This document shows positions 6,001-9,000 of a stretch of DNA of 51,950 nucleotides, one piece after another. The position numbers were made by a program. The stretch covers positions 1 through 51,950 of the IMG/VR virus record IMGVR_UViG_2909303794_000011, one strand, 5' to 3'. This DNA comes from a virus (lineage: Duplodnaviria; Heunggongvirae; Uroviricota; Caudoviricetes). Numbering within the stretch: the first letter of the stretch is position 1; every line of letters begins with the position of its first letter.

Positions 6001-9000
6001 GCACCGGTATCTCCCTTTGGACCCTGTGGACCTGCATTTCCCGTCAGACCGGTCTCTCCCCGCTCTCCCCTGTCACCTTTCGGCCCCTGCGGGCCTGCCG
6101 GACCAGCATCACCTGCCGGTCCCCGTTCGCCGGTTGCCCCGACAGGGCCGGTGTCACCGCGCTCTCCCTTATCACCCTTCGGCCCCTGAGGACCCGCGGG
6201 CCCCTGTTCCCCCTTTGGCCCGGGAGGTCCCACCACGGTGGGGATTCGGTTTACGGCCTCTTCCGCCGCTATCCTGCTTTGTTCCGCTGACTGTGCGCTT
6301 TCTGCTGACTCCCGGGCTTTTTCTGTTGCGGTCGTTGCATCCCTGGCTGCATTACCGGCTGCACTTTCTGCCGTCTTTCTTGACAATTCAGCTTCTGCTG
6401 CATTTTGTGATGACTCACTGGCTTTTTGAGCGGCCGCAGAAGCCGAGGACGAGGACGCATCCTCTGACTGCTTTGCTGAGGCTGCACTTTCTGCCGCCTG
6501 CCGGGCTGACTCCGATGCCTCCCCTGCTGAAGTGTCAGCATTTGCAGCGCTCTCTTCTGCCTGACTGGCTGATATGCCGGCATTCCTCGCTGACGTCTCC
6601 GCCTCTCCGGCATTCTTCTTCGCCTCTTCAGCGTGACGCGCCACCTCTTCCACCATCAGTTCAAAACGGCGCAGTGCCTCCGGCCGGACGTCATCCTCCG
6701 ACATGGCACCGAGAAAATCATTCAGCGTACCGGGTCGGGAATCTTCATACACGGTGATGGTCCCGGCATGTGACGGCGGGAATCCTTCCACCAACAGAAT
6801 AACGCTGTACTGACCGTACTCAACGTCCATGCTGTAACGCCCGGCTTCATCCGGATTTTCTGAGGCCAGCGTGTTCACCACCACCGTGGTGCTGTTACGT
6901 TTTGCTTTCAGCTGGATTGTGCAGTTCTGTACCGGTTTTCCTGTGCCGTCTTTCAGTACACCTGAAATCTTTACTGCCATATTCCCCCCACAAAAAAGCC
7001 CACCTGAACCGGCGGGCTGTCATAACACTGTGTTACCTAGCTAATCAGAATTTATAACCGACACCCACGATGAAACCGTCAGTGCGCCAGTCACCACTGC
7101 CGGAGCCTTCATAAGCAATATCAATGGCCACGGATTCGGTCGGGTTAAACTGCACGCCAGCCCCCCACGCCAGAGACGTGTTGCTGTGGCGACCGTCATC
7201 ACTTCCGGTCAGCACATCGTGCGTTTTCCCCTTGTTGTCGGTCACCTGCAGATAATCCCCGGAGAAGGTCGAAACACGGCTGTAAGCCACCCCCGCCATC
7301 GCATACGCGCTGAACCATTCATTCACGCGCACAGACGGTCCCGCCATCACGCTGAACCAGCGGTTACGCACGGAATCCTCATGCCAGCGGGTATCGCTGT
7401 AATGCGTTTTTTGCTCATCTTCAGCGTTGGCATAACTGAATGACGTAATCAGCCCCAGCGTGTCCGTAAACTCATAACGGTATTTCACGTTAATCCCGTT
7501 CAGATTATCGCTGCCGGGAGCGTTCGTACGGGCATGAAGATACCCTGCGCTCAGTGTGGCCTGCTGCTCAGATGCCCATGCAGGCGCACCGGATACGGCC
7601 AGACAGATGGCTGCGGACAAAATGGCTGCATAAACTTTACGCATAATTACCTCTCGCTTTTCTGCAATAAAAAAGGCGCCATTTCTGGCGCCCGTATTGG
7701 GGTTATAAAATTCAGCTGATACTGATGCCTGCGGTGGCTTTCTTCATCACCACAACCAGCAAATCACTGATACTTGCTGTGGGATACCAGTCATTTACCA
7801 GCCATGCTGACACCGAAAACTCCAGCGTCATGTGGCCGCGACCAGCTGGCATATCAATAACACCACTGTAAATCAGCGTATTATCCAGCGCGGTACGGTT
7901 ATAAATTTCAGCACCGTTTTTCCGTACTATCAGGCGGCATGACGAATAAATATCGTTATTCTCCCGCTCATGTTTAGCGCCGCTGAATGCCACCGCCGGA
8001 ATAACAATTTGCCTGTCAAAAGGCTGATCGTCATAAATCCTGACGGTAATGGTCCCTGATGGCCACCGCTCCGGTGCCCGGGAGTCCCGCGGGAAAGCCT
8101 TACCCACTGTTTTGACAATATCACCTTCAATCTGGTTGGCTGACAGCTTCCCCTTAATCGTACAATTCTCATTAATCGTGACATTGTTGAGCGTCCCGGC
8201 GTTCGCATTCACACTGCCACTGATATCCGCATTTTTAGCGGTCAGCTTTCCGTCTGATGTCAGGGAAAATACCGGAGGACTGCCACCACTGGTAATGGTG
8301 GGGGCCGTCAGGCGCTTCAGGAACACGTCGTTCATGAATATCTGATTGCCCTGCGCCACAAACATCGGCGTTTCATTCCCGTTTGCCGGGTCAATAAATG
8401 CGATACGGTTAGCGGCAACCAGAAACTGACTCAGTTTGCCTTCCTCCGTGTCCTCCATGCTGAGGCCAATACCCGCGACATAATGTTTGCCGTCTTTGGT
8501 CTGCTCAATTTTGACGCCCCACATGGCATTCCACTTATCGTTGGCGTCCTTCCACTCTTTCGAAAACTGCTCCAGTCTGCTGGCGTTATCCTCCGTCAGG
8601 TCGACTTTTTCCAGCAACTCCTTGCCGAGATGAGATTCGGTTATCTTGCCTTTGAAAAAATCCAGGTAACCTTCCGCATCATCGCTCGCCCGACCGACAG
8701 CCTCCACGAATGCCGATTTGCCAACGGTGTTCACACTGCGGATATAAAAGTAATAATCATGGCCCGGTTTGATATTGATACTGGCGGCTATCCAGTACAG
8801 CCCCGTGCCAAGATAGCGGGCTGTGGTTTCAACCTGCCTGATATCGGTAATCCGCTTTTCCGAGAACCAGAACTCAAACTGTACCGTCGGATCATAAACC
8901 GCAAGATGCGGCGTGGCGGTTATCTGAAAATACCCCGGTGTCAGCTCAATCTGTGACGGCGCTGCCGGTGCGGCAATCCGGAACGATACCGACGCCGGAT

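Follow-up and report, generated by a model that had tools for sequence, protein, structure and literature searches.

Genes and terminators at the lom locus

The window, by which we mean the whole stretch of 51,950 nucleotides analysed here (IMG/VR record IMGVR_UViG_2909303794_000011), holds a lambdoid prophage with CDT-I, Cif and NleH cargo. The genes near lom all lie on the minus strand, as do the Q gene and the terminators described below. J, the gene for the tail tip/host specificity protein (11107..7712, with six GpJ domains), is followed by lom (7644..7045; Pfam Ail_Lom PF06316, E=2.5e-124), whose sequence shows a Shine-Dalgarno element, GAGAGG, at 7655..7650. Next comes a side tail fibre gene (stf-like, 6980..5667) with phage_tail_N, Collagen repeats and Phage_fiber_C, and then an 89-aa ORF (5665..5396), the last gene of the fibre module, which encodes a second Phage_fiber_C domain with 37% identity to the fibre's own C-terminus. 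Genes for an NleH-like kinase (5289..4408), Cif (4184..3333) and CdtA/B/C (2209..1), all assigned by Pfam, make up the cargo. Of the window's first 12 kb, 94% can be aligned with phage cdtI (AB285204), which is inducible, at ~97% identity; beyond that region the rest of the phage cdtI backbone is unlike the window.

A preliminary description of this DNA had placed hairpin plus U-tract structures just after J and again between lom and stf, in the interval 6991-7692. Both structures are present, and the interval correctly runs from the tail of the second to the stem of the first; the strand, which had been left unstated, is the minus strand. The J/lom gap contains T1 (7666..7693), with its stem at 7693..7674, a GAAA loop and a U-tract reaching 7666. 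The T1 hairpin sequence is GGGCGCCAGAAATGGCGCCT (7693..7674), the 3' T-tract found by a consensus terminator scan is TTTTTATT, and the RNA 3' of the stem reads UUUUUAUU. T1 has 8 pairs, 6 of them G-C, a 4-nt loop and a U-tract that abuts the stem; it begins 18 nt past the stop codon of J, with a hairpin energy of -15.1 kcal/mol. T2 (6992..7018) occupies the gap between lom and the side tail fibre gene, with its stem at 7018..6997 and its U-tract extending to 6992. Its hairpin, AGCCCGCCGGTTCAGGTGGGCT (7018..6997), is followed directly 3' by TTTTTG (UUUUUG in RNA) and has 8 pairs (6 G-C, one G-U and one A-U in the window copy), a 6-nt loop and an energy of -15.7 kcal/mol; 26 nt separate the lom stop codon from its start.

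In the consensus scan T1 and T2 were the top two terminator-like sites in window positions 1-16000. A stricter scan covered the whole minus strand for compact hairpins of at most 30 nt with a T-run directly 3', and found five such sites at or below -15 kcal/mol. Two of the five are in the ~65-nt gaps on either side of lom. In 20 dinucleotide-preserving shuffles the chance level of such sites was 0.25 on average, with a maximum of 2, and on these counts we rejected the idea that T1 and T2 are chance hairpins. Bidirectional terminators were rejected as well: the plus strand has no T-run at either hairpin, and T1 and T2 should therefore terminate only transcription that runs in the same sense as the late operon. 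No Rfam family matched at T1 or T2, either in a permissive scan of 4000-9000 or in a gathering-threshold scan of the whole window. T1 and T2 are predicted, from sequence, to be genuine and canonical intrinsic (rho-independent) terminators.

To follow the two sites through evolution, both junctions were extracted from ~320 Lom-relative loci in viral and genome collections. T1 stems occur across these loci as GGCGCC/GGCGCC, GGCACC/GGTGCC and GGCGTC/GACGCC. Covariation in T1 was computed on 25 distinct sequences and compared with 500 shuffles: 96% of cells in the alignment are paired, two pairs show compensatory double changes (G-C to A-U and C-G to U-A, in 4 and 5 distinct sequences), and the covariation score was matched by none of the 500 shuffles. 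In ~10 loci the T1 loop is inverted (AGAAAT to ATTTCT) and the stem is intact. Hairpins with a U-run but with unrelated stems stand at the T1 site in lambda, in a second Lom class (~60% identity to lambda Lom) and in a Citrobacter prophage; in all three the U-run leads into the same short leader up to a GAGG ribosome-binding site. Among the Lom-relative loci the segment from the T1 U-tract to the Shine-Dalgarno sequence is almost invariant. Window and lambda DNA are 95% identical through J to 8144; the match is lost over the J C-terminus, T1 and the greater part of lom and returns at 7172. Since the homology breaks around T1, over 8144..7172, T1 is a structure retained within a diverged block. 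Judged from these alignments, the pairing of T1 is maintained in evolution. A relative that has no lom after J, PhiR12_4, also carries a hairpin and U-run just before the ribosome-binding site of its post-J gene.

T2 has a different history. It sits in a conserved block that spans the lom 3' end to the stf 5' end and, with its flanks, is ~91% identical to lambda. A covariation analysis of T2 found no compensatory changes; all changes were one-sided, 9 of them wobble-compatible and 8 pair-breaking, and pairing was kept no better than in shuffles. T2 appears to be conserved by sequence identity only, and it is its canonical form that argues for a terminator. A small hairpin upstream of T2, UAACACAGUGUUA, was set aside, as its variants break pairs and none compensate.

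A pair of this kind is ordinary and already known, being present in lambda and hundreds of prophages and annotated in at least one public record. In phage mEp460 (GenBank JQ182728) rho-independent terminators are annotated on both sides of lom, at 18380-18406 and 19055-19080, although that annotation is itself a prediction. They have the same positions as in the window (J/lom and lom/side tail fibre) and the same sequences, except that the mEp460 T1 copy is the C-G to U-A compensatory variant (GGCGTC/GACGCC) and its T2 is one base off the window T2. In contrast to the window, mEp460 has another phage backbone and lacks the nleH/cif/cdt cargo. Lambda (NC_001416) has a hairpin and U-tract at J-lom (~18920-18945) and at lom-stf(orf-401) (~19612-19643), with the same spacing as in the window from each hairpin to the next ribosome-binding site. 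The lambda T1 stem, CGTCCGGGAACGGGCG, is nevertheless unrelated to that of the window, and lambda Lom is only ~45% identical to window Lom. Neither terminator is annotated in the lambda record NC_001416 or in the cdtI record AB285204. T1 and T2 were probably inherited with the lambda-type J-lom-stf module.

Q and the hairpins of the late operon

The preliminary description had taken the two terminators to mean that the late transcript ends after J. This reading does not hold up against what lies upstream. A gene for a Q-type late antiterminator is located at 35940..35158 (phrog_127, E=2.8e-108; PF03589, E=2.9e-53). About 110 nt downstream of its stop codon lies a tR'-like terminator (35051..35024), with the sequence AACCCGCCACTGAGCGGGTT followed by TTTTG. 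A Q gene followed by a hairpin and T-run is the usual pR'/tR' arrangement; we take the window's Q protein to be Q82-type. The ORF map and PHROG names show co-directional ORFs from Q through the lysis, head and tail genes to the fibre genes. An IS3-family element lies inside the lysis cassette on the opposite strand, at ~29.6-30.9 kb, and could disturb late transcription of this particular prophage.

Between Q and J the late operon contains further hairpins of the same sort. A terminator hairpin follows a methyltransferase-like gene (33495..33479). A strong hairpin of -15.8 kcal/mol (31296..31331, stem 31331..31305) separates a sialate-esterase-like gene from the holin gene, ahead of every structural gene, and another of -15.2 kcal/mol (28006..28038, stem 28038..28015) follows Rz and precedes the terminase, head and tail genes. 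A terminator-like hairpin at 19343..19373 (stem 19373..19352) follows a 342-aa ORF (20409..19381), by position probably the major capsid gene, and precedes the tail genes. One more terminator-like hairpin, at 11121..11148 (stem 11148..11131), lies in the I/J gap, upstream of the essential J gene, itself the last essential late gene upstream of T1. Hairpins comparable to or stronger than T1 and T2 thus precede the holin, terminase, tail and J genes. Because equivalents stand upstream of indispensable late genes, a hairpin with a U-tract is no marker here of the end of the late transcript. Once loaded with Q, RNA polymerase runs processively past pauses and terminators for distances of thousands to tens of thousands of nucleotides (PMC9388147). 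T1 and T2 are the same kind of element as the tR', or 6S-type, terminator of Q-dependent late operons, which is overridden by the same factor. In contrast to T1 and T2, tR' is a regulatory switch point; T1 and T2 are ~27 kb downstream, with no Q-loading site adjacent.

Expression of lom and the fibre genes

The room left for promoters at the two junctions is small. The lom ATG (7644) is 21 nt past the end of the T1 U-tract (7666), and the fibre ATG (6980) is 11 nt past the end of the T2 U-run (6992), the intervening sequence being GTGGGGGGAAT. Gaps of only 21 and 11 nt make a promoter in the T1-lom or T2-fibre gap impossible. The 11-nt distance also means that fibre mRNA must contain T2, and since the fibre is a virion component, this argues for Q-dependent read-through of T2 rather than for the fibre promoter of its own that had been proposed. 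A consensus scan of the minus strand from ~5300 to 13000 found no promoter-like site. A relaxed weighted scan of the 200 nt upstream of lom, run on the window, lambda, the second Lom class and Citrobacter, found no sigma-70-like lom promoter above shuffles, and in four of four sequence classes the best score was slightly below the shuffled median. An own promoter for lom, as had been suggested, is not supported by this result or by the 21-nt gap. A candidate lom promoter at -104/-75, seen in three classes, was rejected: its score is 3-4.5, it falls within the coding part of J, and transcripts from it would begin upstream of T1. A promoter overlapping T1 was likewise rejected for window-type sequence, in which the U-tract hexamers do not have both a -11 A and a -7 T. 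It is possible that lom transcription starts at a non-canonical or activator-dependent promoter.

Transcription of lambda lom in lysogens has been reported. In one microarray study of lambda, lom went undetected in the lysogen, and the lom promoter is described there as little known (PMC2147009). The suggestion that lom may be expressed from the repressed prophage would agree, by analogy, with the lambda lom literature. Lambda lom has been scored as non-essential (PMC10695390), and Lom is named among moron-encoded products. A moron, as PMC3594210 summarises it after Juhala et al. 2000, is a gene added to a phage operon that brings a promoter and a terminator of its own. Like a moron, lom is dispensable, has its own terminator, T2, directly 3' and is missing from some relatives (PhiR12_4). 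Unlike a moron, it has no recognisable promoter, and a terminator rather than a promoter is immediately 5'. Its composition is not deviant, with a GC content of 55.5% for lom, 56.3% for J and 59.7% for stf. The moron definition fits lom only in part. A parallel is the 'ant moron' of P22, also an accessory unit in the distal late operon that late polymerase crosses to reach a fibre or spike gene (PMC2629481). The P22 unit lies between the late genes and the tailspike gene and, unlike lom, has its own genes and regulators (Mnt, Arc, sar). The 24B_1 micro-RNA of phage Phi24B was discarded as irrelevant here: it comes from a stretch of 428 nt, downstream of lom, which according to its authors lambda lacks, and the window has the 64-nt lambda-type junction.

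Roles of T1 and T2 and the boundary at T3

We think it likely that T1 and T2 limit ordinary RNA polymerase in the lysogen and are bypassed by Q-loaded polymerase after induction. Termination efficiency at T1 and T2, Q read-through and the roles in the lysogen we infer as follows. In a lysogen, where Q is absent, T1 and T2 would act on ordinary RNA polymerase. T2 would terminate lom mRNA and so silence the side tail fibre genes, and T1 would stop or attenuate transcription arriving from the tail genes, leaving Lom low and insulated. On induction, Q would load polymerase at pR', and T1, T2 and the other terminators of the operon would be bypassed, so that J, lom, the fibre gene and the small fibre-C ORF would be co-transcribed as the distal part of the late transcript.

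The reading from which the work started, that the late transcript ends at T1 and that lom, the fibre and the effector and toxin genes are on promoters of their own, perhaps expressed in the lysogen, draws on the strength and canonical form of T1 and T2, on lysogen expression of lambda lom and on the cargo's foreign composition (~40% GC), which fits independent regulation. It is highly improbable given the Q antitermination cassette, the comparable terminators upstream of essential late genes, the 11-nt and 21-nt gaps, too small for promoters, and the want of a promoter-like site in either scan; moreover, the fibre, as a structural protein of the virion, has to be produced late. T1 might instead serve mainly as an attenuator in the lom leader. 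Transcription would then start in the J 3' end or even farther upstream, and Lom would be made only when polymerase gets past T1, giving low Lom in the lysogen and a Q-dependent burst on induction. The lack of a promoter between T1 and lom, and of a recognisable one within 200 nt upstream, is consistent with this, as are the structural conservation of T1, the near-invariance of the segment from its U-tract to the Shine-Dalgarno sequence and the failure of one study to detect lom in the lysogen, its promoter being little known (PMC2147009). PhiR12_4, however, has a terminator before its post-J gene in the absence of lom, so that T1 need not be lom-specific. As the main role of T1 we regard attenuation as unlikely, but it overlaps with the preferred explanation and is partly compatible with it.

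Two further proposals turn on RNA. The hairpins might act mainly at the RNA level, as 3' stabilisers of processed mRNA segments or as the 3' ends of Hfq-binding sRNAs, with lambda PreS/LPR1 at tL2a and the Pas sRNAs of prophage late regions as precedents. Published work describes terminator-ended sRNAs arising in antiterminated phage operons, and the GC stem and U-tail of T1 and T2 are typical of Hfq binders. Against it, the region matches no Rfam family, the variants of the small hairpin upstream of T2 all break its pairing, and the portions of the lambda and EPEC sRNA studies consulted report none at J-lom or lom-stf; we hold a mainly RNA-level role to be extremely improbable. The other proposal is that T1 and T2 are conditional gates. 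On this view lom would have no conventional promoter, its mRNA would have to pass T1, and read-through there would set how much Lom a lysogen makes, perhaps under the influence of an envelope or host signal; the short RNAs that end at T1 or T2 would also work as Hfq-binding regulators, by analogy with lambda tL2a/PreS. We consider it very unlikely. Our preferred explanation remains that the two terminators limit ordinary polymerase and yield to Q-loaded polymerase.

The fibre genes bear on a further claim, that the terminators bracketing lom set the cargo genes apart from the late operon. Beyond T2 there are still structural genes, those of the fibre, and the break in composition and homology is found at a third site. 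T3, a terminator-like hairpin (5349..5379, stem 5379..5359; AACCGGAGTCCGGCTCCGGTT followed by TTGTGTTG), comes after the fibre module, 16 nt past the stop codon of the 89-aa ORF, with an energy of -12.7 kcal/mol, and is kept in relatives that have the same fibre module. GC content is 51-60% up to T3 and 39.5-42.4% for nleH, cif and cdtABC, and phages Evi and 2B8 cease to be homologous to the window at 5328-5351. As read from composition and homology, the real backbone/cargo boundary is T3 (~5379..5349), and T1 and T2 bracket lom only. The low-GC nleH, cif and cdt genes probably have their own regulation, and Q-modified polymerase may also cross T3.

Apart from correct annotation, little hangs on the T1/T2 pair; what is useful is the corrected reading of the late operon. 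Where the late operon of a lambdoid phage is antiterminated by Q, a strong intrinsic terminator is not equivalent to the end of the late transcript. The boundary at T3 decides which genes are predicted to be co-induced with the phage late genes and which would need signals of their own: the prediction of co-induction holds certainly for lom and the fibre genes and possibly, by read-through, for nleH, cif and cdt.

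Mosaic structure around lom and its terminators

The window was compared with λ around 8144..7172 (−) (λ 18468..19458). Up to 8144 the J genes are 95% identical, and there is then no homology over the receptor-binding end of J, T1 (the J–lom intergenic terminator hairpin) and most of lom. Homology to λ resumes in the final ~127 nt of lom and covers T2, the terminator hairpin between lom and the side tail fibre gene, and the fibre N-terminus. The edges of the diverged block are mosaic junctions. There are at least three classes of Lom protein, 45–60% identical, and the downstream junction is common to them. 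Among the loci collected for comparison, L093–L104 have a λ-type lom, either on fragments or on contigs close to 48.4 kb in length. Coverage is very low, and the assemblies bear labels such as Neobacillus, Kitasatospora, Pseudomonas and Shewanella; these loci are almost certainly λ DNA contamination of their assemblies.

In about ten relatives (e.g., L003, L016, L025 and L298) the T1 loop is reverse-complemented, CCAGAAATGG becoming CCATTTCTGG, while the stem is unaltered. Such a change within an intact stem is the signature of hairpin-loop inversion. Phage PhiR12_4 (L324 3180–3230), a relative that lacks lom, has a hairpin and U-run ahead of its post-J gene, immediately 5′ of that gene's ribosome-binding site. 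Therefore, a terminator before the distal fibre gene recurs independently of lom.

The junction of backbone and cargo

A third terminator-like hairpin (5349–5379, −) lies 3′ of an 89-aa ORF (5396–5665, −), whose Phage_fiber_C domain duplicates the fibre's own, with 37% identity. At this hairpin the GC content goes from 51–60% to about 40%, and the homology of phages Evi and 2B8 to the window stops. This hairpin is the real backbone–cargo junction.

RNA elements and an insertion sequence in the early and lysis regions

In the early region, Rfam matches above the gathering score to C4 antisense RNA (RF01695) and isrK (RF01394) were found at 40589–40777 (−), just downstream of a 382-aa ORF (41137..39989). 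A very strong hairpin with a U-run (31296–31331, −) lies between a sialic-acid-esterase-like gene (31487–33403) and the holin gene. The prophage sRNAs PasA and PasC are placed at this same position in a 2026 preprint. Within the lysis cassette, the holin/endolysin interval contains an IS3-family insertion sequence (~29600–30900, +), including an ALIL frameshift pseudoknot (RF01497, 29907–30023) and an rve-domain transposase (29952–30839). The element runs antisense to the late operon, and its presence in the cassette may exert a polar effect or may have rendered the prophage defective.
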